Assembly (NCBI GenBank): GCA_049276535.1
Contig: JBASWP010000001.1
Coordinates: 168,241 to 232,240 of the forward strand
DNA: 64,000 nt
Source of the DNA: Candidatus Microsaccharimonas sp.
Lineage (GTDB): Bacteria; Patescibacteriota; Saccharimonadia; Saccharimonadales; Saccharimonadaceae
Direction of reading: 5' to 3'
This document shows, piece after piece, positions 7,385-33,177 of this stretch (the stretch's first letter is position 1; every line of letters begins with the position of its first letter). The position numbers and the translations under genes are program-made. Below the pieces are notes generated by a model. That model was not told where the DNA came from, made no database searches, and saw nothing but the letters and a program-made list of their open reading frames with translations.

Positions 7385-9829
7385 TTAGATACGAGCCAGT
7401 TCGGCGTCTGATGTCAGATAGATTTTTAATGGCGGCTTGGCTTCGCTGTCATTCTCGATTGCTTTGACATAAGTACTCACACGAGTCGTCTCTTTTTCTT
7501 GTTGATTCATTACACTTAGTACCTCGAGGTCCAGACCTTCTGCCTCTAGACAGGTCGACCATGCATCGTAGGTATGTTTGCTGCCTTCGGGCAGTAATCG
7601 TAGATGGGCGATACGTTCGGTGATCGCACTTTTACCATCACCTATAATTCCTTCTTCAGTTTCAACGACTTGCTGACACATGAATGTTTGTAGAACGGTC
7701 AGGGCTGCAGCATTGAGGTGCTGTAGGCGCTCTTTATTTACGACACGTTTCTTGCCAGTCAGAATATTCATATCAGGGTCGATGAGGAATCGAACCGGTT
7801 TTACGCCATTTAATTTTACCGTTCCAATGAATGCCTGTGGATTCTTCGGATGTTTGCGTAGTTCTAATCGAACAGCCGCTTGCTCGTTATCGGTACCTGT
7901 TAGCTCGGCAGCAATACCGCGAATATTCATGAATCGGCGTCGGTTTTTCAAAATGTCGTCACGCAGTCCATCAATAATTTCGCGAGGGTCATATTCACCG
8001 CTAAACAATTGCTCCATACGCGCATCGCTTAGTACCGTTTCAAGATCATGTAATCCATGACTGTCTTCTTCGGTTTTGTGGCGCATCATGCCACTAAAGC
8101 CTGATTCATCATCGAAGAAAAGGTGGTTACGTGAATACATACCGCCACTTCGTTCGCCGAATCGCTTTTTCGCGGCCTCGAGAACGTCTGGGTTAACCTG
8201 TTTCAGTCGTTCCTCTTCCTCGGCCAGATCCTCTTCGTTTTGTCCGAATATACCGATAATGTATCCGTCGCCCATGTCGACTTCTCGTTTCAGTTTTAAG
8301 TAGTCACGTGCCATGTCTATCAGTGGCGCGTTACCAAACAATGTCGAGTTTGTCTTGGCCAAGTGTTCGTTCATTTTAAGCGTCGCTTCGAGTGTACGAT
8401 CCGTCAGGTATACATCACTGTCGCTACGAACTAAAGAATCAGACGACAGGACTGCACGAATAAATGCTTCTTGTGAAGGGCTTTTCGCGACTGCATAGTG
8501 GATTAAGTAGTCATTCATACGGCCTTCGCCGAATTCACTATCGAACAGAAAGTCAGTATATTCAGTCATGTCGACAGGTAGATCATGGATCGCCTCTTGA
8601 ATACTTTGCATCGCAAAATGTCGTGCCTTATATTCCTCCGCACCGATTTCACCGACAGCCTCACGTTGAATTGCGAAAATTGCCGATTCATTCCCCTTCA
8701 ATGATCCTTGTTGAAAACGCTGAACAAAACTAGCGGTTTGTTCGACGACACCAGCATTTTCATGACTGTAAGGATTGAGATTCTTACGTTTGAATTCTTT
8801 AGCTGATCCTTCAATCATTGCGTCGGTTAATTCAACCATAACGTCATCATTAACACCCATTTTTATATCCGTAACAGCACGTCCAGCGGTCAGCAAACGT
8901 GCCATCAAGTCAGGGCGATGAAAGCCCGCGCCGCCAAACGACTGCAAATACACGTTGTACATTGCATTGTTCGGAATGACCGATTTGTCTTTGAACTCAA
9001 TAATATTCAGCCCGTACCGAGCCGCTATAGGTTCATCAGCAACACGCAGGATACCGCGTATAAAATTCTCGTAATGAACGATGGTCTGCTCGGACGTCAC
9101 GCCCAAAAAGGGTTTGAAATAGCTACCGATGAGGGTTTTACGCACATCTTGCTGGGCAATGCTTGGTCTGTTAGCCATACGAAGCCAGTTGGCAATATCA
9201 TCGGGGTCAGTATCACGAGCATTCGCTTCGATAAACTTTCCGACACGTTCGGAAATCAGTCCTTTTACTTCACTACGTGCTTGTTCGGATACGTCATCCT
9301 TGGCGATGATACTCTCTAACATGACCGCCAGTCGATGCGGCTCGGCCATAAGTTCTGCCGCCTTTACTGACTGAAGATCCTGCTTTAAGGCACGCTCTGC
9401 GGCTTCTTTCTGTTTTCGGGTGGGGATTTTGTCCATTCCAGCTAGACGCTCGGCGTGGTTTGCTAATACATCATGTACCAGTTGGATGTCCCTTTGACGA
9501 CCTTCGTAGTATTCAGCCTGTGTTTCGGTATCTTCAATAGAATCAAGTAGTGACTCGTAATCTTGTTCAGGTGCCGTCGAGACGGTATCATCATCGAGTG
9601 TCGAGACGTTTCCCTCGGCCCTTCGCAGTACTTTACCAAACGCTGATGCAGCATTTTGGAGTTCACTGTGAATATCGTGGGCTTCGTCATACCTCGAGTC
9701 AGTTTCGATCTCCTCTAACACACTCTCCTGTTCTTCAGGTGATTCGTTTTCGTATACATCTAACAATTCCCGCTCTTCTTTATAGAGGCGAGAGGCTTCG
9801 GATACCTTCATTGACTCCGGCATATCCAT
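7385..9829 (-). CDS. Large acidic hypothetical protein (814 aa)
   Basis: Long ORF in the background composition. No motif recognised by eye. Very acidic N-terminus. Confidence 0.4.
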   Translation of the reverse strand: MDMPESMKVSEASRLYKEERELLDVYENESPEEQESVLEEIETDSRYDEAHDIHSELQNAASAFGKVLRRAEGNVSTLDDDTVSTAPEQDYESLLDSIEDTETQAEYYEGRQRDIQLVHDVLANHAERLAGMDKIPTRKQKEAAERALKQDLQSVKAAELMAEPHRLAVMLESIIAKDDVSEQARSEVKGLISERVGKFIEANARDTDPDDIANWLRMANRPSIAQQDVRKTLIGSYFKPFLGVTSEQTIVHYENFIRGILRVADEPIAARYGLNIIEFKDKSVIPNNAMYNVYLQSFGGAGFHRPDLMARLLTAGRAVTDIKMGVNDDVMVELTDAMIEGSAKEFKRKNLNPYSHENAGVVEQTASFVQRFQQGSLKGNESAIFAIQREAVGEIGAEEYKARHFAMQSIQEAIHDLPVDMTEYTDFLFDSEFGEGRMNDYLIHYAVAKSPSQEAFIRAVLSSDSLVRSDSDVYLTDRTLEATLKMNEHLAKTNSTLFGNAPLIDMARDYLKLKREVDMGDGYIIGIFGQNEEDLAEEEERLKQVNPDVLEAAKKRFGERSGGMYSRNHLFFDDESGFSGMMRHKTEEDSHGLHDLETVLSDARMEQLFSGEYDPREIIDGLRDDILKNRRRFMNIRGIAAELTGTDNEQAAVRLELRKHPKNPQAFIGTVKLNGVKPVRFLIDPDMNILTGKKRVVNKERLQHLNAAALTVLQTFMCQQVVETEEGIIGDGKSAITERIAHLRLLPEGSKHTYDAWSTCLEAEGLDLEVLSVMNQQEKETTRVSTYVKAIENDSEAKPPLKIYLTSDAELARI

Positions 9830-9880: not shown

Positions 9881-10165
9881 TTACGGCTGTAAAACGGCGA
9901 GGATATTCCCTGCCGGGTCCTTGAACCAAGCGATATCTGGCCCTTGATTAGCTGCTTTGCCACGCAATATCCCTTTTTCGTCTTGTTCACCCGGCATATT
10001 ATCGTAGCGTTCAAACGTCAGGCCGTGATGACCGGCGCCTAAATGATCGACGGTCGCATCGATATCTTCGACAACTTTTAAATCGAGTGTCCCGACGTAG
10101 AATTCGCGGGCTTTTTCCAGATTATCAACCGATAATCCGCTAAATGATGATAACGCAGTGAGCAT
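9881..10165 (-). CDS. Small VOC/glyoxalase-like domain protein
   Basis: 94-aa ORF whose 'LSVDNLEKAREFYVGTLDL...FKDPAGNILAV' pattern resembles the glyoxalase/bleomycin-resistance fold. Confidence 0.4.
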   Translation of the reverse strand: MLTALSSFSGLSVDNLEKAREFYVGTLDLKVVEDIDATVDHLGAGHHGLTFERYDNMPGEQDEKGILRGKAANQGPDIAWFKDPAGNILAVLQP

Positions 10166-10197: not shown

Positions 10198-10563
10198 TTA
10201 ATTGCCAGCGCTAGCATCGAGTGTTTCAAGTTTGCGGGCATACTCCTCAATGGTAGTGACGTCAGGAAAGAGTAAGTAATAATCAAGTAAGAATGCCTTT
10301 TGGACACTGGCTGGTTCACTACCGTCTATGTCTTTGTGCGCGTCTTTTTTCCAATATAGCTCGGCAAACCGTGCATAATCAAATGCTTCCTTGTTTGGGT
10401 TTGAGGCAATAGCCGCCTGCAGGGCGGCATCGGTTGCTGCGTCCTTCTCGGTCCATGCCTCACTCTCTACAAGATCATCGACGCTGACGCCGAATTTTAA
10501 TTCGCTCTCTCCGGACGGAGTAGCAGTGTCGGTATGGGGGGTAGTGTGTTCATCAAATGTCAT
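10198..10563 (-). CDS. Hypothetical protein
   Basis: 121-aa ORF in an operon-like array with its neighbours. Acidic. Confidence 0.35.
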   Translation of the reverse strand: MTFDEHTTPHTDTATPSGESELKFGVSVDDLVESEAWTEKDAATDAALQAAIASNPNKEAFDYARFAELYWKKDAHKDIDGSEPASVQKAFLLDYYLLFPDVTTIEEYARKLETLDASAGN

Positions 10564-10599
10564 AATTGCGTGTCTCCTAATAAGTTAATTATACCATAA

Positions 10600-11193
10600 T
10601 TACGATGCGTTTTGAACCGTAGCGGCTTCGCTATCTAAACGGTCAGAAAGTAACGTGATTGCCATCCGCGCCGACGCATTCAACAACTTTGCTGTCTCTG
10701 CAAAGGTAGTGAATTCAGTTGCCTCGAGCGTCTTTATGGTATTTTCCATAATCGGTCGAAAGAATCCGTTGCCCCACTCCAGACCCAAGGCGTGCAGGTT
10801 ATATAGAACACTAGTCGTGTTATCAATCAAATCAGCATATTTTACGATCCGTACTTCTTCGGGTGCTGAAAAAATTTGTTGCATATATTCAGACGTATGT
10901 TGATCGTCCTGATGATTCGTCAGTTGTTCGATGTAATCAAGGACTCTGTCACCAAACTTCTCTCGCAATTCGTCTCTGGTAACTTCAGTGTCTTCGAGTA
11001 GGTCGTGCCCTAATCCCGCTAGATAAATGTCTTCTAATAAACTTTCATCTAACGATGAATGAGTTGTTCGAAGGGCATAGGTCGCTATCTCGGCAACGTT
11101 ATGACAGTGGAACGTTACAGGAACATCACCCCTAAACTGGCCATCATGCCATTTAGTTATCGTTGCAAACATCAAATCTTTTCGTTGGGTCAT
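10600..11193 (-). CDS. HD-domain phosphohydrolase
   Basis: 'AGLGHDLLEDT' matches the HD motif (H...HD...D) as in the (p)ppGpp-hydrolase/YfbR-like family. Its start overlaps the stop of the upstream large ORF. Confidence 0.55.
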   Translation of the reverse strand: MTQRKDLMFATITKWHDGQFRGDVPVTFHCHNVAEIATYALRTTHSSLDESLLEDIYLAGLGHDLLEDTEVTRDELREKFGDRVLDYIEQLTNHQDDQHTSEYMQQIFSAPEEVRIVKYADLIDNTTSVLYNLHALGLEWGNGFFRPIMENTIKTLEATEFTTFAETAKLLNASARMAITLLSDRLDSEAATVQNAS

Positions 11194-13391
11194 GTCTTAG
11201 CTCCTGCTATTCTTTTGTAGTATCCTAGGAAGTTCTGCCAGGCAGCCTGATCGGCGGCAGGGTCTTGTCCGGCAATAGTACCAGGTGAATGTTTATAATA
11301 CTCTTCTCGCCCGCCCTCATATTTAGGTAGTGGTAGTCCTGCACGCATCAGTATGAACGACGACATCGCCTTGGCAGATTTACCACAGCCATCAGCAAAG
11401 AAGTGGTCAACCATATCAATACGATACTCACAAAACGCGGCAGTTTCTACTGGGTCACTGTCCGGATTTGCCATGCGTTGTTGCAGCTCTTGATAAAACT
11501 GCTGCATCGCAGCCGGTAAATCCTCTAGTCGGGTATAAGGATACTTGTCTGAATCTTCACCACTCCTAATCAGCGCACCTTCCTTGACGATACCTTCATT
11601 GATCTGGGCGGCGATACCTTCAACAAGTTGTCGAACATCTTCAGGCGATGAAAATTCTTTATCGCGTTGTTCAAATGCGCTCATAATTGCCGTGTCAAAA
11701 TTGCGCTTTGCCTTTTCGGCGGCTTCGTCTCCGTCAATTGCTTCCATACTCTCCGCCTTTGTGCCACTCGCCGACACATCAACGGTACCGTTAGCTGTTC
11801 GCGATGTGGCAAGGAGGTTCTGATTTGCATCAGTCAAATATTGAACGGATTCTTCAGCGGACGACGCGTCAGCCATCGTATCGACGGCACGTCGTAAGGT
11901 CTTACCTTTGAACTCACCTAGTTTAGCTCGTACTTTCTGGGCGTACGCTTGCACGTTTTCTGCGTCTCCTATGTAGGTAGCGACGTATTCTTCGATATAC
12001 TCATCAGTAATAACGCGATCACCAATCGCTTCAGCTTCTGCTTGTAGTACCGAGGGGTCAGTCTCGACACTTACCGACATAGCAAGTTCTTCTCGACCTT
12101 CGACAACCCTAATTTCATCGCCATCAAGCTGTGCAACCGTCACTGATTTCTTTTCTGCGTAGTCGAATGCAGTTAACATGTATCCGTCGACACGAGTACC
12201 GCTATACTCTTTGACACTAGCGAATAATTCCCGCCGACTGGCCCGAATACCGACATACCCTTTTACGATAGCCTCGAAAGGAACATTTGGGTCCGCGCCG
12301 CCACGCTGACGTAAAAGGACACCCACCAAAGACGTCTCTACCGGCGCGTCAACGTCAAGAATACGAACCGCTCGATCGGTCTCGGCTGCATTTGCCAGAA
12401 TATCTGCGATATCTTCCGGTGTCTCGTTACGTTTGTCGAGAACCATTGAGGTATCTGGGTTAGTTAACTCTCTATCTACCCTGCGGCCCAACATCGAGCC
12501 TTCATCGTGAACCTGCCCCGCACTAATGTCAACATGTCCTTCACGAAGTTCGTATTTATACGAATCGGGATTCAATGCTCCTGATGGTTCACCTTCCTCA
12601 TCTAAAATTCCGGCAAACATTTCATTGCCTGCAGCGAGTGCGCGTGTTTTACCCGACGCGGTATTTCCACGCAAGGCGTAGATAGTTGGTTTTGGGTTAT
12701 GCTGCTTCAGTCGTTCTGATAATGCTTGCGCCGCTTCTAACGCACCGCTGACAATTGTTTCATGTAACTGCTGTCTTTGAGCTTCCCAATTTTCGGGATT
12801 ATCGTAGACACTTTTTCGTTCTGACTTTGTCATACCTTGGGTCTCGACCGCCACAAATGATTCCACTGTACTTAGCTTTGTCCGTTTTAACTCACCGACC
12901 TTTCCTTCGTATGACCCGTCGGGGGCGACTTCGGCCGAACCTTCTAGCCCGTCCAACCTATCGATCTCGTCAGCAATTTGTTCTGCGAGGGGACGGTCCG
13001 TTTCGGCAATAGCAACGGTAGCCTCGATAACTTCAGAACTGTATCCATCTTGTTTCAGCTCGGCCAACGGATTACCATCGTGCCCAGCTAGTTCACCCTC
13101 CACGGTTTGCCCAGCAGCTGCACTGACTGCTTCAATAATTTCACTGCTTTGATCGTGAGTTCGCTCACCTGTCTGATCGGCCTGCTGAATCGTCTGTTCA
13201 GCAACATAGGTCAGTGCCTCACCTGTTTTTTCTTCTAATTCAACGCGACTAGTGGGTCGGAATGTTTCGGCTACACGGTCTTTAACAGAGATAATTCGAT
13301 CGCGCATCCGCTCAATGAGCGGCTTTTTAACATCGGTTTCTGGACCCTTGTAGCTTTCGGTAGAATCAGACTGCATGTTTGGGTTTGTCAT
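11190..13391 (-). CDS. Large P-loop NTPase protein with C-terminal divergent Fic/Doc-like motif
   Basis: Walker-A-like 'RGNTASGKTRA' mid-protein. The C-terminus has 'HFFADGCGKSAKAMSSFILMRAGLP', which aligns with the Fic core HxFx(D/E)GNGRxxR followed by the LxxxGxP helix. Confidence 0.45.
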   Translation of the reverse strand: MTNPNMQSDSTESYKGPETDVKKPLIERMRDRIISVKDRVAETFRPTSRVELEEKTGEALTYVAEQTIQQADQTGERTHDQSSEIIEAVSAAAGQTVEGELAGHDGNPLAELKQDGYSSEVIEATVAIAETDRPLAEQIADEIDRLDGLEGSAEVAPDGSYEGKVGELKRTKLSTVESFVAVETQGMTKSERKSVYDNPENWEAQRQQLHETIVSGALEAAQALSERLKQHNPKPTIYALRGNTASGKTRALAAGNEMFAGILDEEGEPSGALNPDSYKYELREGHVDISAGQVHDEGSMLGRRVDRELTNPDTSMVLDKRNETPEDIADILANAAETDRAVRILDVDAPVETSLVGVLLRQRGGADPNVPFEAIVKGYVGIRASRRELFASVKEYSGTRVDGYMLTAFDYAEKKSVTVAQLDGDEIRVVEGREELAMSVSVETDPSVLQAEAEAIGDRVITDEYIEEYVATYIGDAENVQAYAQKVRAKLGEFKGKTLRRAVDTMADASSAEESVQYLTDANQNLLATSRTANGTVDVSASGTKAESMEAIDGDEAAEKAKRNFDTAIMSAFEQRDKEFSSPEDVRQLVEGIAAQINEGIVKEGALIRSGEDSDKYPYTRLEDLPAAMQQFYQELQQRMANPDSDPVETAAFCEYRIDMVDHFFADGCGKSAKAMSSFILMRAGLPLPKYEGGREEYYKHSPGTIAGQDPAADQAAWQNFLGYYKRIAGAKT

Positions 13392-13492: not shown

Positions 13493-14098
13493 ATGTCCGA
13501 ATTTACCGATGCCGACTTTTCCGATCCGATCCGCCGAATGAGTGATGGCGCCTTAGCACGCCTACATGCCATTAATAACGGCGAGATTGAATCGATGCGC
13601 GTTGGAGACGAACATCTTTCTTTGATCACAGATCGCCACGAATCAGATATCTTTCAAGAAGTCTCGTATGAGGTCCTCACGCGAGCATTTATCTTTGATC
13701 GTGTCGGTGACCCAATTATGCAACAAGATAGACTTCCGCCTCACCTACAAGGAACGTTAAGTGGCATGCTGTTAACCCTGGCCGATTCACAGGATTCAAA
13801 ACAAAGTCGCAATATTACGCCGCTAGAGTTTGATGCGGAATACGCGGCAAAACTGGTTGCCGACAAGTGGCTTTTATCGACCACTGAACGCATGAATCAT
13901 CAGGATTTTAAGTTTTTTACCCTTGATTTAGGCCACGTTGCCTTCACTAGTATCTTCTTTGCCTACGATACTGATACGCAAGCATGGCGATTAGGATATG
14001 AGATGAAACGACCGTTTATTACCTATAGGGCTCATCCAGATTTTAAAGGCGAAATCGACATTGTCGATGACGAAGAAAGTGATCTCGTCGTTCTATAG
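13493..14098 (+). CDS. Hypothetical protein
   Basis: 201-aa ORF in the background composition. No recognisable motif. Confidence 0.4.
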   Translation: MSEFTDADFSDPIRRMSDGALARLHAINNGEIESMRVGDEHLSLITDRHESDIFQEVSYEVLTRAFIFDRVGDPIMQQDRLPPHLQGTLSGMLLTLADSQDSKQSRNITPLEFDAEYAAKLVADKWLLSTTERMNHQDFKFFTLDLGHVAFTSIFFAYDTDTQAWRLGYEMKRPFITYRAHPDFKGEIDIVDDEESDLVVL

Positions 14099-14127
14099 CT
14101 ATTTCCTACTCTTTCAGAGGTCAGCTA

Positions 14128-14156
14128 TTGAATTATCGTAGTTTTTATGCTATAAT
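14128..14156 (+). promoter_or_regulatory. Sigma70-like promoter (TTGAAT-17-TATAAT, extended TGcTATAAT) driving GC-rich island A
   Basis: TTGAAT at 14128-14133, a 17-bp spacer, TATAAT at 14151-14156 preceded by TGC. It sits in an AT-rich segment immediately 5' of the GC-rich genes. Confidence 0.55.
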
Positions 14157-14269
14157 AGGCTAGCTTGTGAGCCTGCTACCGAATCGGGAGCGAGAGCTCC
14201 AGGTTCGTTAACATGCTCACACACTACGAAAGACTTGTCCCTTGTTAGATCCGACCAAAGGAGAAACAC

Positions 14270-15814
14270 ATGCTTGTCATGGGAATCGCATCTCTGGTTA
14301 TCTGCGCGGTCGGCCTCTACGTGGGCTATCGCACAGGAATGCTGAAGATGCGTTATTGGGTTCGGTTGATTTGGGTCGCCTCGCTTGTCGTGGGGACCTT
14401 CGCCACCGGATTCACCGGCTACTACGCGGCGAACGCCGTGGCGTATCAGGCAGTCGTTGGCGGCTTTCACCAATTCCTTAACGGGACGGTGATCGCTGCT
14501 GACGTCGAAGAGACCAAGTGCGAAAAGGACGGCTCGTGCGTCTACGAGTACGACTGCGACCCCTACCAGGTGCCGCATTACAGTACCGACGAAGACGGCG
14601 AGGTCACCGTTACCTACACCACCGAGTACCACGACTGCCCGTACGCGACTTTCGAGTATCGCTACGAGACGACGGACTCGATCGGTAACACGCACGACTT
14701 TGGGAGCTACATCGCCGCCGAACCTGTCGTCTGGGAGGAAGGAGACCTCCTCGACTTGTTCAACATCGATGTCCCAGAGCTCTTCCCGACCACGATTCCG
14801 GACCACATCCCGCGAGGGGTGCCCGGCGATTGGCAGGCCGCAAGGACTGCCTTGGACAATGGTCGCGGACTGCCGATGACCGTCGAAGGAGAATACGAGA
14901 ACTACATTCTCGCCTCCGACGAGGAACTGCTGAAAGCGTCTTCCGACGATATCGATGCGCTGCTGGATGCGGGTCTGCTCCCCGAGCACACCCAAAACCT
15001 GCACAGCCCGATCTACGGAACGTTCAATGCCAACAAGGTCAACTTCGTCGGGTTCACGCCCGACAACGAGGCCGAGTGGCAAGAGTCAGTCATGCAGTTC
15101 AACGCGGCGCTCGGAAGCGAGCTCCGCGGAGATCTGCACGTGGTCGTCATCGAGGATTCGGCGCTTCCCAGCGACGTCTCCGCAGACGACTACGCCAACG
15201 CCCTCAAGGCGTACTGGCTCAACCATCTCGACAAGTACGCGTTCGGCAAAAACGGCATCATGGTGGTCATCGGAATCGACGACCGTCAGGACACCGTTGA
15301 GTGGGCGCGCGCATCCACAGGCATGCCTACCGGCAACGGAGTCATGCTGTCGTGGATCGAGACGTCCCTCCTGAACGAGTCATACGACCTGCCCACCCTC
15401 ATGGGCGAGACGTATGCGACCGTCGCGAACGGCGAGGCTTCCTACACCATCGGTGAGGGGCTGATTCCGCAAGCGATCATGGTCGACTTCCCGTTCGAAC
15501 GGGTATGCATGAGGTGCGATGAAGACGGCGAAGGCGAAGGTATCGGGTTTAGCGACCTGACCATCAATAGCGAGGTCGAATGGTGGGGCTACTTGGTGAC
15601 GATCATCCTGATGATCGTTATCTTGGCGCTCCCCTGGGGCCTGTTCTTCTACAACAACCTTCTTGCTACCGATCGATACGAAGAGATCGAGGAAGAATCC
15701 ACCCGTATGCGCGAACGCGGTTCCTGGAGAGACGAGTTGAGATACTTGGGTCCCCTGGAATTCGCCAGACGCATCAGACAATCCCGCAAGTCCAACCACA
15801 ACAGATGGAGTTAG
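14270..15814 (+). CDS. GC-rich island A gene 1: membrane protein, function unknown
   Basis: 514-aa ORF with strong third-position GC bias. Two N-terminal TM helices, a large Cys-containing central domain ('CEKDGSCVYEYDCDPY', 'YHDCPY') and a C-terminal TM helix. No recognisable motif. Confidence 0.5.
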   Translation: MLVMGIASLVICAVGLYVGYRTGMLKMRYWVRLIWVASLVVGTFATGFTGYYAANAVAYQAVVGGFHQFLNGTVIAADVEETKCEKDGSCVYEYDCDPYQVPHYSTDEDGEVTVTYTTEYHDCPYATFEYRYETTDSIGNTHDFGSYIAAEPVVWEEGDLLDLFNIDVPELFPTTIPDHIPRGVPGDWQAARTALDNGRGLPMTVEGEYENYILASDEELLKASSDDIDALLDAGLLPEHTQNLHSPIYGTFNANKVNFVGFTPDNEAEWQESVMQFNAALGSELRGDLHVVVIEDSALPSDVSADDYANALKAYWLNHLDKYAFGKNGIMVVIGIDDRQDTVEWARASTGMPTGNGVMLSWIETSLLNESYDLPTLMGETYATVANGEASYTIGEGLIPQAIMVDFPFERVCMRCDEDGEGEGIGFSDLTINSEVEWWGYLVTIILMIVILALPWGLFFYNNLLATDRYEEIEEESTRMRERGSWRDELRYLGPLEFARRIRQSRKSNHNRWS

Positions 15815-15819
15815 ATCCC

Positions 15820-16500
15820 ATGTCCGACAACGACACGTCCTACACGAAGACCCCGCCCCGACTCGTCCCCTGGCTCATCGCCGGTGGTGCGTTCGTCGTC
15901 GCGTTGGTCGTCGGCCTGTCAGTGTTCTTCACCTACCAGAACGTGATCAGCACCGGTAACCAGAAGGAGGCGAACATGAGTTCGCTGTACGCTCAGGGAG
16001 CCACCACGCTGTCCACGTGCCTGGTGCAGACGTCACAGGCGGCCAACGTCGCGCAGGCGGAGTCGGAGGCCTTGCAAGAGGTCTTCGCGTCCGCCATCGC
16101 GGCGCGCTACGACACCCCCGCCGGCCAGATCGACGAGGGCGCGCTGTTCTCGGCGATCGTCGAGGCCTACCCCGATGTGACCGGCCTGGAAGAGACTTTC
16201 CAGCAGGTCATCTCGGTCATCGTCGGCTGCCGCACGGACTACGCCAACGCACAGGCGCTCGTCCAGGTGGCCGTGAAGGACTTCAACAGCTGGCGAACTG
16301 GCAGCTGGGTGGTCCGCACCTTCGGTGGCTCGGAGTTCCCGAACGACAACCTCTACATCGCCATCGGCGACACCGAGGTATACGGTCAGGAGGCCTACGA
16401 GATCATGCGCAAGCCGATCGTCGACAACTCGACGATCACCGCCTACGAGGAAGGAGTCATCGAGATCGAGGACCCCTTCCCGTCGGGCGACGACGAGTAG
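15820..16500 (+). CDS. GC-rich island A gene 2: N-terminally membrane-anchored protein, function unknown
   Basis: Same frame as the track ORF 15580..16500. The likely start is ATG 15820, just after the upstream stop at 15812-15814, giving 'MSDNDTSYTKTPPRLVPWLIAGGAFVVALVV...'. It has one TM helix followed by a soluble domain. Confidence 0.5.
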   Translation: MSDNDTSYTKTPPRLVPWLIAGGAFVVALVVGLSVFFTYQNVISTGNQKEANMSSLYAQGATTLSTCLVQTSQAANVAQAESEALQEVFASAIAARYDTPAGQIDEGALFSAIVEAYPDVTGLEETFQQVISVIVGCRTDYANAQALVQVAVKDFNSWRTGSWVVRTFGGSEFPNDNLYIAIGDTEVYGQEAYEIMRKPIVDNSTITAYEEGVIEIEDPFPSGDDE

Positions 16501-16648
16501 GCATCCCTTCGGGGTAACAAGTAGTGACAGTCCTTCGGGAGTGTGAGCATCCGCCACGGCGTCCGATCACTCGGATGTCCGTGGCGGTATGTGTCCAGGA
16601 ATAGAATAATCCTGCTGATGAGTCGTAAACGACGAAACACATCTTGTA

Positions 16649-16677
16649 TTGAATAATTGTATATTTTATGCTATAAT
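16649..16677 (+). promoter_or_regulatory. Second copy of the TTGAAT-17-TATAAT promoter element
   Basis: Contains TTGAAT, a 17-bp spacer and TATAAT, sharing 'ttttatgctataata' with the 14.1 kb copy. It sits in a short AT-rich gap inside the GC-rich island. Confidence 0.5.
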
Positions 16678-16710
16678 ATACTTATTCCCTACTGAAAGGA
16701 AGTACCCGCG

Positions 16711-17133
16711 ATGAACGTCGCACGAATCCTCGAAATCCTGTTCGATTCACTCGGACAGGTCGACGAGAACCAGAACCCTCTCGAGGGTTCAGAAGTTGTG
16801 GATGTGTACATGCAGCCGATCGCGCTCAACGTCGCGAAGGTGCACGAGTACGCCGCCGAGATGATCGAACTCCTCAAGGAGTGGCCCAGCGAAAGCTGGG
16901 GTCAGTCGGTCCCGCCGCTGGGTGAAGAGATCAACTATCTCATCGCCGGCGCCGTTCTCGACAACCAGCGTCACGCCTTCATGCTGTTCGCCTTCGGCAA
17001 GCTGCTGGACTGGTGGGACATCATGGACCCACACACCATGCTCGGCCTCGCAAAGGACGACCCGTTGGGTCTCCAAATGGCCGGCAGCGGCTTCATCGCC
17101 ATCTTGGGCTACCGTCCGACGGTTCCGGCCTAG
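16711..17133 (+). CDS. GC-rich island A gene 3: hypothetical cytoplasmic protein
   Basis: 140-aa ORF with GC-rich codon usage. A GGAAG ribosome-binding site precedes it and an intrinsic terminator follows. Confidence 0.45.
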   Translation: MNVARILEILFDSLGQVDENQNPLEGSEVVDVYMQPIALNVAKVHEYAAEMIELLKEWPSESWGQSVPPLGEEINYLIAGAVLDNQRHAFMLFAFGKLLDWWDIMDPHTMLGLAKDDPLGLQMAGSGFIAILGYRPTVPA

Positions 17134-17148
17134 ATGGCACACTTGCAG

Positions 17149-17175
17149 TACGGGGATCGGGCGCACACATGTGCG
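17149..17175 (+). terminator. Intrinsic terminator ending island A
   Basis: Perfect hairpin 'gggcgcacacatgtgcgccc' followed by TTTTCTCATTT. Confidence 0.6.
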
Positions 17176-17214
17176 CCCTTTTCTCATTTCAGTATATATC
17201 TATACATGACATCT

Positions 17215-17799
17215 TTAAGACGCGGTCAGTATTGAAAACACTCGCTGACCTACCATGTCATCGAACGGTTCGCCTTGTTCGATTCGGCGACGGAGTTCGG
17301 TTGAGCTGAGGTCTAAGTGCGGAATAGTCAACGCCAGTGCCCGTACCGCCAATGGGTTGATCGTGCTTCCTGCCCGTTCGACAACCAACATGGCTAAATT
17401 CCGAAGCAACCAGTCACCGTGTTGCCATTCACCCATCGTCTCGGTTGAATCGGCGCCAAATACCCAGCGAAATTCGCGATCAGGATAGGTATCCGCCAGC
17501 TCAACGACAGTATCGTAGGTTTCAACCGCGACACTTCGATCGAGTTCGGCCGTATATACCGAAGTAGGAACCCCCGTTACGTCAGTGTCTTCAATCATGC
17601 CGGCAACATACGCCAGTCGCTGTTCACGTGTCGCAGGGATCGCCTTGTCTATTCGGTTACCACTAGGCATCACCCATACTTCAGCCCCGTGTGGCCGAGC
17701 GTAATTGACAGCTGCCTGCAAGATCTCTTGATGAGCCAGGGTAGGGGGGTTAAAAGCTCCGCCATAGATGACTGTTTCGATCTGTTCTGGGTTTCTCAT
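17215..17799 (-). CDS. nadD: Nicotinate-nucleotide adenylyltransferase
   Basis: N-terminal 'YGGAFNPPTLAH' nucleotidyltransferase (H/T)xGH motif. Size (194 aa) and NAD-gene context fit. Confidence 0.75.
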   Translation of the reverse strand: MRNPEQIETVIYGGAFNPPTLAHQEILQAAVNYARPHGAEVWVMPSGNRIDKAIPATREQRLAYVAGMIEDTDVTGVPTSVYTAELDRSVAVETYDTVVELADTYPDREFRWVFGADSTETMGEWQHGDWLLRNLAMLVVERAGSTINPLAVRALALTIPHLDLSSTELRRRIEQGEPFDDMVGQRVFSILTAS

Positions 17800-17885
17800 A
17801 GTTTTATTCCTTACTTATTGTTGACATTACACTAACTATGCTCTACGATAAGTATATACCAGTTAGTGTAAAAAAGGAAATAAGT

Positions 17886-19796
17886 ATGGAAATTATGAAA
17901 AAAGATGACGGATACGAACCAAAACGCAACTTTCTAAGGGTCGCGACAGCGACACCAGAAGTTGCCATTGCCGATGTTACCGAGAACCTTACCCGTATCT
18001 GCGAATTGTATGATCAAGCGGTCGACGCACACACTTCCCTCGTTGTCTTCCCCGAGCTATCTTTGACTGGCTATAGTATTCAGGACCTTGTCCAACAACC
18101 CGCCCTTTTACAGAATGCTCGTCAGGCACTTGCTGGTTTCGCTGAATACACTAAGGGTCGTAATACCGCGGCCATCGTCGGTCTTCCTTTTGTAGTTGGT
18201 AATGCGATTTATAACACCGCCGCTGTTGTTTCTGAAGGTAAAATTCGCGGCATCGTTCCAAAGCAAAACCTTCCTACCTATAACGAATTTTACGAAAAAC
18301 GCTGGTACCAGACATGGGACGATCGTCCAAATACCCAGGTCCTGATCGATGATACTGCGGTCACCTTCGGTCGTGACCAGTTATTCGCTATCGGCGATCA
18401 ATTAGTTGGTATCGAAATTTGCGAAGACCTGTGGGTACCGCAACAACCAAGTATTCGCTTAGCTGAAAACGGCGCAACGATCATCGCAAATCCTTCTGCT
18501 TCACCCGAAGCTGTCGCAAAACCACGCTACCGCCGTGAACTGGTTGCCCAAACCGCCGCAAGGAACATGGTTGGGTATGTTTACGCCAGTGCAGACCAAA
18601 GCGAGTCTACCGCCGAAATCGTCATGGGTGGCCACGCCATTATTAACGAACTAGGCACCGGTCTAGCTGAACGCGCACCCTTCACAAAACCTCAACCGCT
18701 GATGATTGCCGACATCGACATGCAACATATCGCCAGTGACCGTCGAAAAACCACCAATTTTCCTAACCGAATGGACATCACTCCTACTCCTACCTTTGTC
18801 ACGCCAGCGCAAAGTGACCTACTACGAGCAATTGACGCAGAACCATTCATTCCAAAAGGTTCAGCCGAAGAAATCGCTGAACGTCTGGAACACATCCTCA
18901 ATATCCAAGCAACGGGCCTAGCAATGCGACTCAAAAGCGCCAATATTAAAAAGGTAGTCTTGGGACTCTCTGGTGGGCTGGATTCAACACTCGCCTTCCT
19001 AGTCGCTACCCGTGCCGCAGATATACTCGATGTTCCAGCAAGTGAGCTCATCCACACACTAACAATGCCAGCAAACGCCAGTTCAGCTCGCACTCAAAAT
19101 AATGCAATGAAGTTAGCAGCCGCTATGGGAATTACTAACGATGAAATTGCCATCCAAAACCTAACCGACGCTCAACTGGCCGTCATTGATCACGAAGGTG
19201 GCCAAGATGTGACGTTCGAAAACACCCAGGCACGTATTCGCCAAGCATTGGTATTTAACAAAGCGAATCAAATCAACGGACTAGCCATGGGTACCGGTGA
19301 CCTTAGTGAAATAGCGCTCGGGTGGGCCACCTACAACGGCGACCACATGTCTCACTACAACGTGAACGCATCAATTCCAAAGACACTGGTCCGCTCACTC
19401 GTCAGGCATGCTAGTACAGCCCTGCCTGAAAAGGCACAGACAATCGTGGCCGATATATTAGATACTCCCGTCTCACCAGAACTGACCGGTGATGGAAACA
19501 CCATTAGCCAGGAAACCGAAGACCTAATTGGCCCTTACGAATTGCATGATTTCTACCTCTATCACTTCCTTCGCTGGATGGAACCAAAGGAAAAGATCGG
19601 CTACCTAGCAGTCAAAGCATTCGAAGGTCGACGCACCGCCGACGAAGTTACCAAATGGTTAGACGTGTTCATCGATCGCTTTTACAAAAACCAATGGAAA
19701 AGACAAGCAATGCCTGATGGCGCCAAAGTAGGCATCAGTTTAAGCCCTAAGGGCGACTGGCGTATGCCACCAGAAGCCCGAGCAGTGTTATACTAA
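17886..19796 (+). CDS. nadE: Glutamine-dependent NAD+ synthetase (CN-hydrolase + NAD synthetase domains)
   Basis: N-terminal nitrilase-like domain ('VVFPELSLTGY') and C-terminal PP-loop 'GLSGGLDS'. The preferred start is ATG 17886, which follows an AAGGAAA ribosome-binding site; the track ORF starts at 17838. Confidence 0.85.
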   Translation: MEIMKKDDGYEPKRNFLRVATATPEVAIADVTENLTRICELYDQAVDAHTSLVVFPELSLTGYSIQDLVQQPALLQNARQALAGFAEYTKGRNTAAIVGLPFVVGNAIYNTAAVVSEGKIRGIVPKQNLPTYNEFYEKRWYQTWDDRPNTQVLIDDTAVTFGRDQLFAIGDQLVGIEICEDLWVPQQPSIRLAENGATIIANPSASPEAVAKPRYRRELVAQTAARNMVGYVYASADQSESTAEIVMGGHAIINELGTGLAERAPFTKPQPLMIADIDMQHIASDRRKTTNFPNRMDITPTPTFVTPAQSDLLRAIDAEPFIPKGSAEEIAERLEHILNIQATGLAMRLKSANIKKVVLGLSGGLDSTLAFLVATRAADILDVPASELIHTLTMPANASSARTQNNAMKLAAAMGITNDEIAIQNLTDAQLAVIDHEGGQDVTFENTQARIRQALVFNKANQINGLAMGTGDLSEIALGWATYNGDHMSHYNVNASIPKTLVRSLVRHASTALPEKAQTIVADILDTPVSPELTGDGNTISQETEDLIGPYELHDFYLYHFLRWMEPKEKIGYLAVKAFEGRRTADEVTKWLDVFIDRFYKNQWKRQAMPDGAKVGISLSPKGDWRMPPEARAVLY

Positions 19797-19800
19797 CTGT

Positions 19801-20475
19801 ATGAAATACACTACACCGTATGTAGCACCGACACTCACTGTTGACGCAGTTATCTTCCAGCTGATCAATAACGAGCTTTCTGTTCTGTTAATACAGCGCC
19901 CGAACGACCCTTTCAAAGGATCATGGGCACTACCTGGTGGCTATAACCCCCAAGGTGAAACGACCATCGTAGCATTGGAACGAATCGTCCAAGAAAAAAC
20001 TGGGGTAAATATCAAAAAGAACCTTAGCTATATCGAACAGCTGTATACATTCGATACTGTCGCCCGCGATCCTCGTGGCCATGCCGTATCGGTCACGTAT
20101 ATGGGGTGTGGGCGCGACCTTGAATCGGATATTTCGACCGGCGTCGGCTTTTTTCCTGTAACGTCCCTTCCAGAACTTGCGTATGACCACGCCGATATTA
20201 TTCACTATGCTCATAAGCGGCTGATCGCGAAGTTGACCTACACCAATGCGGTGTATGCCTTCCTCCCCCCTCGATTTACCCTCGCCGAGTTACAGGCTGC
20301 CTATGAAGGAATCTTTGGCTACGCACTCGATAAACGAAACTTCCGTAAGAAATTCTTGAGTCTAGGCCTAACCGAAGAAACCGACGAAAAACGTCGTGAT
20401 GGTGCCCACCGTCCTGCAGCGTTACATAAATTCCGCTCACAAACCCTCGAAACACTGTCTCGTAGCTTCGATTGA
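19801..20475 (+). CDS. Nudix-domain protein, probably NrtR-like NAD-regulon regulator / ADP-ribose pyrophosphatase
   Basis: Nudix box 'GGYNPQGETTIVALERIVQEKTGV' plus a roughly 90-aa C-terminal domain. It is adjacent to nadD/nadE, as NrtR family members usually are. Confidence 0.55.
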   Translation: MKYTTPYVAPTLTVDAVIFQLINNELSVLLIQRPNDPFKGSWALPGGYNPQGETTIVALERIVQEKTGVNIKKNLSYIEQLYTFDTVARDPRGHAVSVTYMGCGRDLESDISTGVGFFPVTSLPELAYDHADIIHYAHKRLIAKLTYTNAVYAFLPPRFTLAELQAAYEGIFGYALDKRNFRKKFLSLGLTEETDEKRRDGAHRPAALHKFRSQTLETLSRSFD

Positions 20476-20659
20476 TCTTAATTCTTAATTTGTGACTTTC
20501 GTCCTTGGTTATATTCCTATAGCCTGGACTCATCAGCATATGTCTACATATGGAGTCGTGCAGACCTGCGAGGAGGCGAAGTGAATCGCGCTCTCTCGCA
20601 GGTCTGTTAGTGTACGGGCGTTGCGGCTCGCACGGGTGGAATTACACGACTCTTGCCGG

Positions 20660-21436
20660 CTACGGAGCGAAGAAGCCGTTCATCGCCGTCTGGCTGAACG
20701 ACGCCGACTGGCTGGCCCGCACCGCGGACTGGCTGACGACGGCGAACGCCTTGCGGATCTCGGACGGCGAGTTGCCCGGCGTCAGGACCCACTCATCGAG
20801 CAGGCCCATCTTCGAGAACACGTCGCGGAAGTCCGTGTGGCCATCCTCGATGCCGACGCCGGCGATGATGTGCTGCTCGGTCGCCAGCAGTCCCTTCACG
20901 ATCACGGCGACGTCACGAGCCTTCTTGACGGAACCGTAGTCCGCGCCGTCGGTCGTGACGAAGGTGATGGCTCGCGCCGTCACCCCGCCCTGTTCGAACT
21001 CTGCGATCTTTGCAGCCACGGCCGTGAGGACGAGGATCATCTGGTCGTAGAGCGGGGTGCTGCCGCCGGGGTTGTAGTTCGTCCCGTCCAGGCGGATGGC
21101 CTGGTCGAGCAGAACGTACGGCTGCAGCACTCCTCGGTTGAGCGTCCAGACACCGCAGAGAACCGCGGCCTGCTGCTTGGACGCTTTCAGCGAGTCGACC
21201 ACGAGGTTGTGACCATCGCGGGCGTGCTGGGCGTTGTCGTACATCGAGGTGCTGTCGTCGAGCACCTCGGTGACGATGATGACCTCCGAGGCGTCGATGT
21301 CATCGACGACGACCGTGCCGAGGCCGGCGTTGATAGCCGGCCCCAGCGTGTCGACGACCGTAGTCATCGCCGCGGTCGCGTCGTCATCGACCCCTGCTCC
21401 GGAGATCAGGCTGGACAGAGAGGTTGTGCTTGTCAT
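20660..21436 (-). CDS. vWA-domain protein with MIDAS motif (TerY-like), island B gene 4
   Basis: 'LDDSTSM' (DxSxS MIDAS) and 'VTTDGADYG'. GC-rich codon usage. Last gene of the minus-strand operon. Confidence 0.65.
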   Translation of the reverse strand: MTSTTSLSSLISGAGVDDDATAAMTTVVDTLGPAINAGLGTVVVDDIDASEVIIVTEVLDDSTSMYDNAQHARDGHNLVVDSLKASKQQAAVLCGVWTLNRGVLQPYVLLDQAIRLDGTNYNPGGSTPLYDQMILVLTAVAAKIAEFEQGGVTARAITFVTTDGADYGSVKKARDVAVIVKGLLATEQHIIAGVGIEDGHTDFRDVFSKMGLLDEWVLTPGNSPSEIRKAFAVVSQSAVRASQSASFSQTAMNGFFAP

Positions 21437-21457
21437 CTTGTTCGTTTCCTTTCAGGA

Positions 21458-22510
21458 TCAGACGAGATTGATGTCCGGCCAGGACTCGATCGGGTCGGTC
21501 GAGTTGACGACGTGCATGCCGGCGCTGCGGAACTCGTCGAACGCCTTGTCGGCGTCCGGCCCGTAGTCGACGATCACGTCACCGGTGGTGGGGTCCTTCA
21601 CGACGATCGACGTCGTGCAGTCCTCCATGATGTAGATCTTCTTCGCCAGGGCGATGTCGATCGCGGCGATCTCCCGCAGGAGATCCGAGATGGTCCAGGC
21701 CACGCAGTGGCTCTTCGCCTGTCCCGTGATGATCAGCACGTCGTTCTCGATCAGTTCCTTCAGGAACTCGGTGTTGCGAGGGACGGGCTGTCCGTCGAAC
21801 AGCGAGTTAACCTCGGGTCCCAGGATCGAGTAGTTCTCGACGAAGGGGTGAGTCCCCTTGATCTGGATGCCCGGCTGGACTCCACGGACCAGGCCGTGGT
21901 AGTTGACCGCCTCGGCGATGCCGCTGACGAGGGCGTGGCCCTTGTCACCGATCATGCCGTGGTACGGCCACATCGTCAGAGCGTAGCGCCCCGCCGACTC
22001 CAGCTTCGCGGTGTAGTCCATCAGGTGCTGCCGCAGGAACATCACCGATACCTTCAGCGCCGCCGCTGTGAAGGGATCCGGAACCCAGACCCCACCAGCG
22101 ATGTCTGCGTGGGTGATGGTGGTGAACGGCGCCGGGTGGTTGCCGTTCGCATCGATGACGAACGAGGTGTGGAACACCGCGAACGCTCGGTGCGTGTCCA
22201 GCGTGCAGTCGATGCTGGACAGCGTCGCCAGGTTGCGGTAGATGAACTCCGCGGTCCGGATGCTGTCCTGCACCGCGCCATCTCCGCTCATGCCGGCGAC
22301 GAACAGCTCCCCGTTGGGGTCGCAGAACGTCCGCTGAGTGTCGATGAGCAGCAGGCCGACCTTACGAGCGTCGTCCTTCGCCGGCTTGATCCCGAGGGAC
22401 CGCCGGGTGTCGAGTGCCGCCGACTGCAGCGCGCTGAAATCGATCCAGCGCGTGTCATCGACGACGTTCTCCGGCTTGTAAAACGCCGGTAGTGCCAATG
22501 TGTTCTTCAT
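21458..22510 (-). CDS. Isochorismatase/nicotinamidase-family cysteine hydrolase (long form), island B gene 3
   Basis: 'LLLIDTQRTFCDP' (vDmQndF-like) and 'VLIITGQAKSHCVAWTISD' (catalytic Cys segment) with a roughly 130-aa insertion between them. Lies 21 nt from both neighbouring genes. Confidence 0.55.
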   Translation of the reverse strand: MKNTLALPAFYKPENVVDDTRWIDFSALQSAALDTRRSLGIKPAKDDARKVGLLLIDTQRTFCDPNGELFVAGMSGDGAVQDSIRTAEFIYRNLATLSSIDCTLDTHRAFAVFHTSFVIDANGNHPAPFTTITHADIAGGVWVPDPFTAAALKVSVMFLRQHLMDYTAKLESAGRYALTMWPYHGMIGDKGHALVSGIAEAVNYHGLVRGVQPGIQIKGTHPFVENYSILGPEVNSLFDGQPVPRNTEFLKELIENDVLIITGQAKSHCVAWTISDLLREIAAIDIALAKKIYIMEDCTTSIVVKDPTTGDVIVDYGPDADKAFDEFRSAGMHVVNSTDPIESWPDINLV

Positions 22511-22531
22511 TGCCTTGCCTTTCCGTTTTTT

Positions 22532-24403: not shown

Positions 24404-24405
24404 GG

Positions 24406-30933: not shown

Positions 30934-30949
30934 ATTCATTTATATTTTG

Positions 30950-30986
30950 GGAATTGAAAAGCCCCAGGGCTTATCAGATGCCTGGG
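30950..30986 (-). terminator. Intrinsic terminator for the flotillin-like gene
   Basis: Hairpin gccccagg/cctggggc followed on the minus strand by TTTTCAATT. A second hairpin ggggtacgt/acgtacccc at about 31033-31066 sits right after the stop. Confidence 0.5.
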
Positions 30987-31081
30987 GCGATTCGCGTACG
31001 TGACCATCGTCTCAATACAATTGTAGAGACGGTGCCGGGGTACGTCAGCGCGAGCCAACGTACCCCAGCCTCATCATGCGA

Positions 31082-32920: not shown

Positions 32921-33177
32921 GTATTTCTCCTTGGGATAGGTGTTGCATGAATGGTGGGATGAACGTAACTAGTTACGTATGTAGTTTCATGATGAATTGT
33001 GATGATCGTTCGTCGCCCACCAGCGAATTTTGCAATTTTACATCTTTTTTCATAAAAAGTCAAGGGTTGAGAGGTGTTAATTTGATAATAACGCGATGTT
33101 AATTAACTTGCAAAAAATACATAAATATGATATATTACCTCTGTTGTTTTACTGGACACTACCGGAAGGCGTAAGAC

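Follow-up and report, generated by a model that had tools for sequence, protein, structure and literature searches.

A fused zeta kinase and Fic-fold protein, a RelA/SpoT-type hydrolase and an Arc1-like protein form two putative toxin-antidote cassettes in a Saccharibacteria genome

Here we analyzed a locus within a 64,000-nucleotide stretch of DNA from Candidatus Microsaccharimonas sp. (NCBI GenBank assembly GCA_049276535.1, contig JBASWP010000001.1, positions 168,241 to 232,240 of the forward strand; hereafter the window), in which a 733-amino-acid (aa) protein joins a zeta-type P-loop kinase to a Fic-like domain and is followed by the genes for an HD-domain hydrolase and a small Arc1-like protein. 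The reading that we favor, with moderate confidence, is that this chromosomal locus comprises two toxin-antidote cassettes joined in one operon, with their toxins fused in one protein and the HD hydrolase as an enzymatic antidote. In the first cassette, a zeta kinase of the AvrRxo1 type would phosphorylate the adenosine 3'-OH of nicotinamide adenine dinucleotide (NAD), producing 3'-NADP, and the Arc1-type protein would neutralize the kinase by binding it, as in the solved AvrRxo1:ORF2 complex. The second would consist of a Fic-fold enzyme that carries the motif HFFxDGCGKxxK, lacks an inhibitory glutamate and is partnered with a RelA/SpoT-type HD hydrolase; the latter would act enzymatically, by hydrolyzing what the Fic-like domain, and possibly the kinase too, makes, a product of the 3'-(pyro)phosphate type. 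Both antidote genes come after the fused toxin and are nested, first HD, which is translationally coupled, and then Arc1. An earlier note on this DNA, made from the sequence alone, had proposed a single toxin- or effector-antidote pair made up of the P-loop/Fic-like fusion and the HD hydrolase, an interpretation that was largely right but incomplete.

The composite toxin is encoded on the minus strand (13391..11190 in the list of open reading frames (ORFs) of the window), and the NCBI entry 'zeta toxin family protein [Candidatus Microsaccharimonas sp.]' is 100% identical to it. With domain limits taken from our own hidden Markov models (HMMs), it consists of an N-terminal helical region (aa 1-190, 12822..13391), an AvrRxo1-like zeta-toxin kinase domain (aa 191-505, 11877..12821) and a Fic-fold domain (aa 506-733, 11193..11876). 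The two motifs that the earlier note had picked out in this protein, the Walker A motif GNTASGKT (aa 242-249, 12645-12668) and the Fic motif HFFADGCGKSAK (aa 663-674, 11370-11405), are both there, and as sequence matches they are far beyond chance. Its stop codon does overlap the start of the HD gene, the two sharing the four nucleotides ATGA (...AAG ACA TGA / ATG ACC...). On the 3' side of the toxin ORF there follow, in order, the 197-aa HD ORF (10600..11193, minus strand), a 121-aa ORF that has its own AGGAGA ribosome-binding site (10198..10563, minus strand), a 94-aa glyoxalase fragment and an 814-aa ORF. The Arc1-like ORF after the HD gene had gone unseen in the earlier note, and we therefore read the locus as four parts in two cassettes; what stands of the proposed pair is the HD partner, which is conserved downstream of Fic-like domains, and what does not stand is the notion of a single pair. 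A weak promoter-like site (TTCAAA, 17 nt, TG-TATAAT; 10588..10616, minus strand) lies ahead of arc1, within the 3'-terminal part of the HD gene. The region holds four such sites against a shuffle expectation of 6.4, and neither these nor the results of a terminator scan of the region were above chance.

Among solved structures, only AvrRxo1 chains proved to be related to the kinase part (AvrRxo1-ORF1, 4z8q_A, E 5.6e-35 over aa 196-502), all other Protein Data Bank (PDB) matches of the protein being Fic proteins at its C terminus. Pfam Zeta_toxin (PF06414) matches aa 229-377 with 25.4 bits, above its cutoff of 22.3, and NCBIfam NF041405 (XopAJ/AvrRxo1) matches with an E-value of 3.4e-64 and 217.1 bits, below its cutoff of 300; as judged by these matches, the kinase is a relative outside the curated XopAJ/AvrRxo1 subfamily. 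GNTASGKT and the NPD motif with D276 (12564-12566), the equivalent of the catalytic Asp, align with GNTATGKT and NPD (D193) of AvrRxo1. In an alignment of 13 homologues K248 and D276 are invariant, and the P-loop, the NPD Asp and a DxDxPxE...R...GG block are conserved both in these homologues and in the AvrRxo1 alignment. The earlier note had described the P-loop region as kinase- or zeta-like, and the Pfam, NCBIfam and PDB matches agree, identifying an AvrRxo1-like zeta-toxin kinase and excluding an ordinary metabolic kinase. AvrRxo1 converts NAD to 3'-NADP by phosphorylation, and a D193N substitution impairs it (PMC5087710); substrate-facing residues differ even between close AvrRxo1 homologues (PMC4938570). 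By homology, we infer an NAD 3'-kinase activity for the window kinase, which would give 3'-NADP.

The N-terminal region of the toxin (aa 1-190) is acidic and helical and, according to our own HMM, is conserved ahead of the kinase in homologues, also within giant proteins; we therefore treat it as an extension of the kinase. An AlphaFold2 (AF2) model of this region reached a predicted local distance difference test (pLDDT) score of 74 in one of five models, and a Foldseek search with that model found no match in the PDB below an E-value of 0.3. A role as a delivery domain was rejected, given the poor model, the lack of a Foldseek relative and the fact that the region travels with the kinase.

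As a separate observation on the surroundings of this NAD-kinase-type toxin, genes of NAD salvage lie 4-17 kb from it (window 17215-20475 and 27998-30933), which may be coincidence. They include nadD (17215-17799, minus strand) and nadE (17838-19796, plus strand), both assigned from their translations, as well as an NrtR-type Nudix regulator (19801-20475, plus strand), a nicotinate phosphoribosyltransferase (NAPRTase/pncB; 27998-29269, plus strand) and a Nudix plus choline-kinase-like protein (29266-30933, plus strand).

The C terminus is, in the predicted structure, a true Fic fold. A profile of the C-terminal 235 aa retrieved 79 proteins, the majority of them stand-alone Saccharibacteria proteins of about 244 aa, and AF2 modeled the domain from a 68-sequence alignment with a pLDDT of 94 and a predicted template modeling score (pTM) of 0.90. 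The best 50 matches listed when this model was compared with the PDB by Foldseek are all Fic proteins, among them FICD, BT_2513, IbpA-Fic2, SoFic and VbhT (best E-value 4.3e-5, TM-score up to 0.61). The C-terminal part also matches FICD at the sequence level, with an E-value of 2e-4 for the single sequence and 1.6e-6 for the family profile, and hhalign aligned the two with a probability of 94.9%, over the core only. The Pfam Fic family (PF02661) scores 16.5-18.3 bits on the window domain, below its cutoff of 24, and gives weak matches in 49 of 68 family members (best E-value 3.4e-5); the homologues carry no precomputed Pfam annotation over this domain. The resemblance to a Fic/Doc motif that the earlier note had seen at the C terminus is thus not fortuitous, as the motif sits in a predicted Fic fold.

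The catalytic loop of this family is both conserved and unusual. In the family motif H-F-F-x-D-G-C-G-K-x-x-K, the H, first F, D and both G are invariant among 68 homologues and the second F, A, C and both K nearly so, and the commonest form among 222 domain copies is HFFADGCGKxxK. The AMPylase signature HxFx(D/E)GNGRxxR is failed by HFFADGCGKSAK, in which Asn is replaced by Cys and both Arg by Lys, substitutions that are found in nearly all 68 sequences. In canonical Fic motifs, the Asn binds the alpha-phosphate and the Arg residues bind the beta- and gamma-phosphates, and deviating motifs signal activities other than AMPylation (PMC3667792). The conserved catalytic residues, together with the Cys and Lys substitutions, indicate selection on the active site. 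Many polar residues in or before the flap are invariant as well (R609, D613, S614, K616, Y619, R531, D538 and K545). The suggestion that the motif is nearer to the Lys-containing variant of Doc was not borne out: the Doc motif HxFx(D/N)(A/G)NKR is failed too, with G-C-G-K in place of (A/G)-N-K-R, the nearest sequences and folds are the class II AMPylators FICD, BT_2513 and IbpA-Fic2, and no Doc protein is among the best 50 Foldseek matches.

Ahead of helix alpha1, at the position of the class II inhibitory helix, the family has an invariant S530-R-T-A-x-G...D538...K545 segment (S-R-T-A-x-G at 11787-11804), which reads S530-R-T-A-N-G in the window protein. Residue 534 lies 129 residues before H663, which we take to be the same spacing as from E234 to H363 in FICD. 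The position of the inhibitory Glu is occupied by Q, K, N, R, G or S, with Glu in one of 181 copies, and the inhibitory motif (S/T)xxxE(G/N), which the earlier note had suggested looking for in cis or in neighbors, had no match in the toxin, the HD protein, the Arc1-like protein or the 201-aa neighbor. A class II inhibitory helix was accordingly rejected: the motif is lacking, the hhalign alignment covers only the core and leaves the S-R-T-A-x-G segment outside, and the equivalence of this segment rests on position and spacing.

The HD protein is identified by its single-sequence and profile matches in the PDB as a putative RelA/SpoT-type hydrolase of the small alarmone hydrolase (SAH) type. 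As a single sequence it matches Lmo0812 with an E-value of 2.7e-9, along with SAHs, Mesh1 and a (p)ppApp hydrolase. A family profile gave 23 PDB matches, almost all of them named RelA/SpoT homologue (RSH) hydrolases, SAHs or Mesh1, with E-values of 4.9e-23 for Lmo0812, 2.3e-19 for fly Mesh1, 5.7e-18 for human MESH1 and about 1e-14 for Rel/SpoT. H29, H63-D64, E67-D68 and D121 are invariant in a six-sequence alignment, and N125 aligns with the DxxxN Asn of two solved reference fragments and of four Fic-fused HD domains, so that the catalytic pattern H...HDxxED...DxxxN, which includes the GHDLLEDT segment, is complete in this single-domain protein. Pfam HD_4 scores 23.7 bits on it, below the cutoff of 27.2, and several orthologues carry an HD_4 annotation. 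Because SAHs act as enzymatic antitoxins of toxSAS toxins, and MESH1 is an NADPH phosphatase, we propose the HD protein as an enzymatic antidote that probably reverses the product of the Fic-like domain. The earlier note had suggested that it could reverse AMPylation or phosphorylation; the HD identity holds, and the RelA/SpoT type points more to 3'-(pyro)phosphate chemistry than to generic de-AMPylation.

The 121-aa ORF brings in the second putative antidote. A small ORF of about 70-120 aa lies beside every kinase homologue that we retrieved, and six of these align with K58, E59, F61, Y95, Y96 and P100 invariant. Against the PDB, a profile of the six had a single match below 0.05, namely AvrRxo1-ORF2 (4z8q_B, E 3.7e-8), and the 121-aa ORF is therefore taken to encode an Arc1-type antitoxin or chaperone of the kinase. 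The published Arc1 motif is KExFD(x25-27)(Y/L)ExxYY, and AvrRxo1:Arc1 is a functional toxin-antitoxin pair (PMC4938570). The window protein has KEAFD and YY, with a spacer of 28 residues and with F-L at the (Y/L)E position. It is homology to AvrRxo1-ORF2 that supports the Arc1-like protein as the putative antitoxin of the locus.

To see how these parts are arranged elsewhere, HMMs for the four parts were scanned on the ORFs of 28 distinct loci, which had been located by looking up exact proteins and by scanning 185,579 species genomes. The HD gene lies directly downstream of the Fic-like gene on the same strand in 18 of the 28, with gaps of 4-130 nt or an overlap, including a myxobacterial locus (L034), and the two are fused in L014. 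Kinase and Arc1 genes are neighbors in 14 loci. Relative to each other, the two cassettes may stand in tandem, with either one first (L010, L016, L017, L019 and L020 versus L021), converge (L002, L007 and L023) or be fused and nested (the window, L001 and L035); toxin and arc1 are separated by the HD gene alone in the window and in L001. Fic-HD occurs without an AvrRxo1-like kinase in L015, L024, L026, L031 and L040, with no Walker A protein found within several kb of it in L026 and L031, and kinase-Arc1 occurs without Fic or HD in L006 and L009. Therefore, neither half needs the other. In a reciprocal scan anchored on HD genes, Fic-like neighbors were found only at HDs of the Fic-associated subfamily (above 130 bits), and about 75 generic SAH or Rel HDs had no Fic-like neighbor; a housekeeping stringent-response hydrolase was rejected as an identity for the HD protein on this ground. 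The HD gene as a conserved downstream partner of Fic-like domains in many unrelated loci fits an antidote role. What the analysis shows directly are the domain identities, the fold, the conserved catalytic residues and the conserved gene order; we infer the substrates, the toxicity, the assignment of each antidote to a domain and the place of action of the toxin, in its own cell or in the host bacterium.

One further HD gene deserves mention on its own. L036 carries an orphan HD of the Fic-associated subfamily (1859-2425, 199 bits) with neither a Fic-like nor a kinase gene in the preceding 1.8 kb, and resembles an orphan immunity gene.

Several observations weigh against two toxin-antidote cassettes. 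Since the Fic motif fails the AMPylase signature, the chemistry of the domain cannot be read from homology. No relevant PADLOC match was found for the locus, and a known anti-phage defence system was rejected. The window toxin has neither a signal peptide nor a recognizable trafficking domain. HD and Fic-like domain share a single chain in five of the search matches, and a further protein, of 1761 aa, has the order kinase-Fic-HD; such fusions suit cooperating or opposing enzymes of a common pathway no less than a toxin with its immunity protein. Lastly, L004, in which the Fic-like domain is missing, has a divergent HD together with a kinase and Arc1, and therefore the HD may serve the kinase.

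This last arrangement speaks for a reading in which the HD protein would counter the kinase by removing phosphate from 3'-NADP, with the Fic-like domain reduced to a non-catalytic or regulatory nucleotide-binding appendage. The chemistry is congenial, in that AvrRxo1 places a 3'-phosphate on adenosine, RSH enzymes cut 3'-pyrophosphates and MESH1 removes the 2'-phosphate of NADPH, and a non-canonical Fic motif would suit an appendage. However, the HD gene follows the Fic-like gene also in loci that have no kinase (L015, L024, L026, L031 and L040), the classical AvrRxo1:Arc1 modules have no HD, and the Fic loop keeps its catalytic His, its Asp and its Gly-x-Gly without exception, which is unexpected for a dead domain. 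We consider this explanation distinctly improbable.

The fusions bear on another alternative, in which all of the enzymes serve one pathway: the kinase would phosphorylate the adenosine 3'-OH, the Fic-like domain would add a second phosphate or a nucleotidyl group, the HD hydrolase would remove the 3'-(pyro)phosphate and Arc1 would only brake the kinase, giving a route to an alarmone-like toxic or signaling nucleotide without an RSH synthetase. A HMMER scan of 1.84 billion representatives found 666 relatives of the Fic-like domain at E-values up to 1e-3, 449 at up to 1e-10 and 225 at up to 1e-30, and the fusion types among them are kinase-Fic, Fic-kinase, HD-Fic, Fic-HD and the one kinase-Fic-HD protein. 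In favor of this reading, dozens of proteins fuse kinase and Fic-like domain, with either one first, and HD joins them with its catalytic residues kept in the four HD fusions aligned, including kinase-Fic-HD. So do the fusions that link the Fic-like domain with further modules for phosphotransfer or adenine nucleotides (a P-loop plus Csx3, and an APH-type kinase) count for it, and the invariant polar residues in and before the flap, which suggest a small-molecule substrate. Bifunctional Rel enzymes, which combine an HD hydrolase and a synthetase in one chain, offer a precedent. Also on this side, ATP and ADP are slow additional substrates of AvrRxo1 (PMC5087710). Yet Fic-HD exists without a nearby kinase or Walker A protein (L026 and L031), kinase-Arc1 exists without Fic or HD (L006, L009 and the AvrRxo1 modules of plant pathogens), and no known Fic enzyme uses a nucleotide acceptor. 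On balance, a single pathway seems unlikely to us, and two cassettes, whose halves occur apart, remain the reading we prefer.

Other fusions and contexts of the Fic-like domain were seen along the way. In two Saccharibacteria genomes (L015, 5369-7663; L024, 5645-7636) it is fused to a different P-loop domain and to Cas_csx3, a domain of the cyclic-oligoadenylate ring nuclease type, and an HD gene follows. A contig binned as Clostridiales encodes a 620-aa protein (L030, 6962-8821) with an N-terminal Fic-like domain and an APH-type (aminoglycoside/choline kinase-like) domain, near which no HD was found. The domain is internal in two very large proteins, P0142 (5878 aa) and P0189 (6100 aa), which bear the Joint Genome Institute (JGI) name N12-class adenine methylase/kinase and look like the large proteins with many enzyme domains that conjugative elements or jumbo phages encode.

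The toxin may act within its own cell or after delivery into another. Saccharibacteria are obligate epibionts, and this lifestyle would suit a contact-dependent effector that is delivered into the actinobacterial host or into competitors, with HD and Arc1 providing self-immunity, as opposed to intracellular addiction or defence. Many relatives are proteins of 1,000-6,100 aa with the Fic-like domain often at the extreme C terminus. Zeta_toxin lies just before it in all six proteins sampled, one of which has a WXG100_2 N terminus, and a 3,676-aa relative from Actinomycetes sits in an ESX-type locus that also encodes EccC, WXG100 and mycosin, so that related kinase-Fic pairs end giant WXG100 proteins and occur in a type VII secretion locus; relatives of this kind are evidently secreted toxins. 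A 1,764-aa relative from Kofleriaceae is followed by an overlapping HD gene of the same subfamily, and has no Arc1. In one Saccharibacteria lineage (L012, 8425-10750; L013, 4085-6410), the Fic-like, HD and kinase genes adjoin PrgI-, TraC- and VirB4-like type IV secretion genes. AvrRxo1 itself is both a secreted effector and the toxin of a toxin-antitoxin pair (PMC4938570). Against delivery stand the missing signal peptide and trafficking domain, an N-terminal region that travels with the kinase in giant proteins and so looks like part of the kinase, not a delivery tag, and the lack of secretion genes beside the module in the 64-kb window. We regard delivery as possible and hold the idea only tentatively.

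How the locus is distributed is relevant to all of these interpretations. The HFFADGCG motif occurs in 18 of the 185,579 species genomes, and the genes flanking the module differ between the window and its closest relative, L001, with no synteny; sporadic distribution and non-syntenic flanks argue against a housekeeping role. Carriage on a mobile element was rejected, since tblastn of the Fic-like domain found nothing among PLSDB plasmids or INPHARED phages and no tRNA was found near the module. The flanking 814-aa (7385-9829, minus strand) and 201-aa (13493-14098, plus strand) ORFs are acidic and have no Pfam, NCBIfam or PADLOC match, and the sole family match of the glyoxalase fragment (9881-10165) is Glyoxalase. 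All three were rejected as parts of the module, as none adjoins it in L001.

Elsewhere in the window, GC content is mosaic, with blocks of 55-60% (14001-18000, 20001-24000 and 30001-34000) against 43-50% in the remainder; the high-GC blocks hold long antiparallel ORF pairs (e.g. 31076-32950 on the plus strand and 31082-32920 on the minus strand), and the toxin module lies in a block of 46-48% that ends at about 14.1 kb. A leucyl-tRNA synthetase (45945-48848, minus strand) has a NUDIX domain inserted at aa 388-499 (Pfam E 1.1e-14), which is unusual for this enzyme. Positions 48883-50394 (minus strand) encode a 503-aa RCC1-repeat (beta-propeller) protein with an N-terminal prokaryotic pilin-type methylation motif, which may be a pilus-tip or pseudopilin-linked adhesin in an epibiont. 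The window also encodes a 555-aa AAA_15/AAA_21 (AbiEii-like) ATPase (37247-38914, minus strand) and a Ser/Thr-kinase-like protein adjoining a PP2C phosphatase (22532-25218, minus strand).

Both zeta kinases of the AvrRxo1 type and Fic enzymes are toxin and effector classes that have been studied well, but the fusion of the two in Saccharimonas received no more than a passing mention in 2016. Two things appear to be new, namely the partnership of a Fic-like domain with an alarmone hydrolase and how large this unannotated Fic subfamily is. Literature searches on Fic with alarmone hydrolases and on AvrRxo1 with alarmones turned up no account of this partnership, and searches for Saccharibacteria with Fic or zeta toxins gave nothing. 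A conjecture to which we give rather little weight is that the HFFxDGCGKxxK domain is a Fic-fold enzyme with an undescribed chemistry, directed not at a protein hydroxyl but at an adenine nucleotide, NAD or tRNA, each at its 3' end, whose product is specifically erased by a dedicated RelA/SpoT-type hydrolase, and which, together with a zeta-type 3'-kinase, would yield alarmone-like 3'-(pyro)phosphorylated toxins without the use of an RSH synthetase. If so, Saccharibacteria may use such toxins against their host bacteria, and other phyla place the zeta and Fic-like pair at the tips of giant type VII-secreted toxins. The locus in any case offers a testable hypothesis of a new Fic chemistry with an enzymatic antidote, joins zeta kinases, Fic enzymes and RSH hydrolases, and is a candidate host-directed or self-control weapon in an ultra-small epibiont whose interaction mechanisms are largely unknown.

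Among known systems, the Fic half is closest to the class II Fic AMPylators (human FICD/HYPE, Bacteroides BT_2513 and Shewanella SoFic), with which it shares the fold, including helices that precede the core, and also the catalytic His, an Asp that binds Mg, the anion nest formed by Gly-x-Gly and, after it, the LxxxGxP helix. It differs from them in its HFFxDGCGKxxK motif, in an inhibitory-Glu position that is almost never Glu and in its pairing with an RSH hydrolase. Doc, the Fic-fold kinase of Phd/Doc, resembles the window domain in its fold, in having a Lys in a non-canonical motif and in being a toxin (putatively so in the window); its motif is unmatched here, however, it is missing from the best 50 Foldseek matches, and the window locus has no Phd-like antitoxin. 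The toxSAS systems (FaRel/ATfaRel and PhRel2/PaSpo) also place a single-domain RSH-type HD hydrolase beside a nucleotide-modifying toxin (a putative one in the window), and their antitoxins detoxify by hydrolyzing the product of the toxin; the partner in the window is a Fic fold plus zeta kinase, whereas theirs is of the RelA/SpoT synthetase fold.

The kinase half shares with epsilon/zeta and PezAT a P-loop zeta kinase fold, a small protein antitoxin encoded alongside and, by homology, 3'-OH phosphorylation of a nucleotide cofactor or precursor. In contrast, no PezT or zeta chain is among the PDB matches of the kinase, and the putative antitoxin is Arc1-like, not epsilon-like, with its gene downstream rather than upstream of the toxin. 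Polymorphic toxins are matched by the relatives, through the WXG100_2 N terminus, the C-terminal zeta and Fic-like domains and the ESX locus, whereas the window protein is without a recognizable trafficking domain. The best match overall for the kinase half is AvrRxo1:Arc1 of Xanthomonas oryzae pv. oryzicola, which has a homologous kinase with conserved Walker A motif and catalytic Asp and a homologous small downstream protein, with the KExFD and YY elements in common. Unlike it, the window locus shows no type III secretion context within the 64 kb covered and adds a 190-aa N-terminal region, a fused Fic-like domain and, separating toxin from arc1, an HD gene. Long AvrRxo1 homologues of Saccharimonas and Parcubacteria were listed by Triplett et al. 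2016 (PMC4938570), who reported in Saccharimonas a kinase-Fic fusion, an arc1-like ORF and an unexplained ORF between them, which is also the layout of the window, and left that ORF and the nature of the Fic domain unanalyzed. The window locus is a new member of this published architecture, and its middle gene, unexplained in 2016, encodes an enzyme of the alarmone-hydrolase type, the partner of a large Fic subfamily that curated models have missed.

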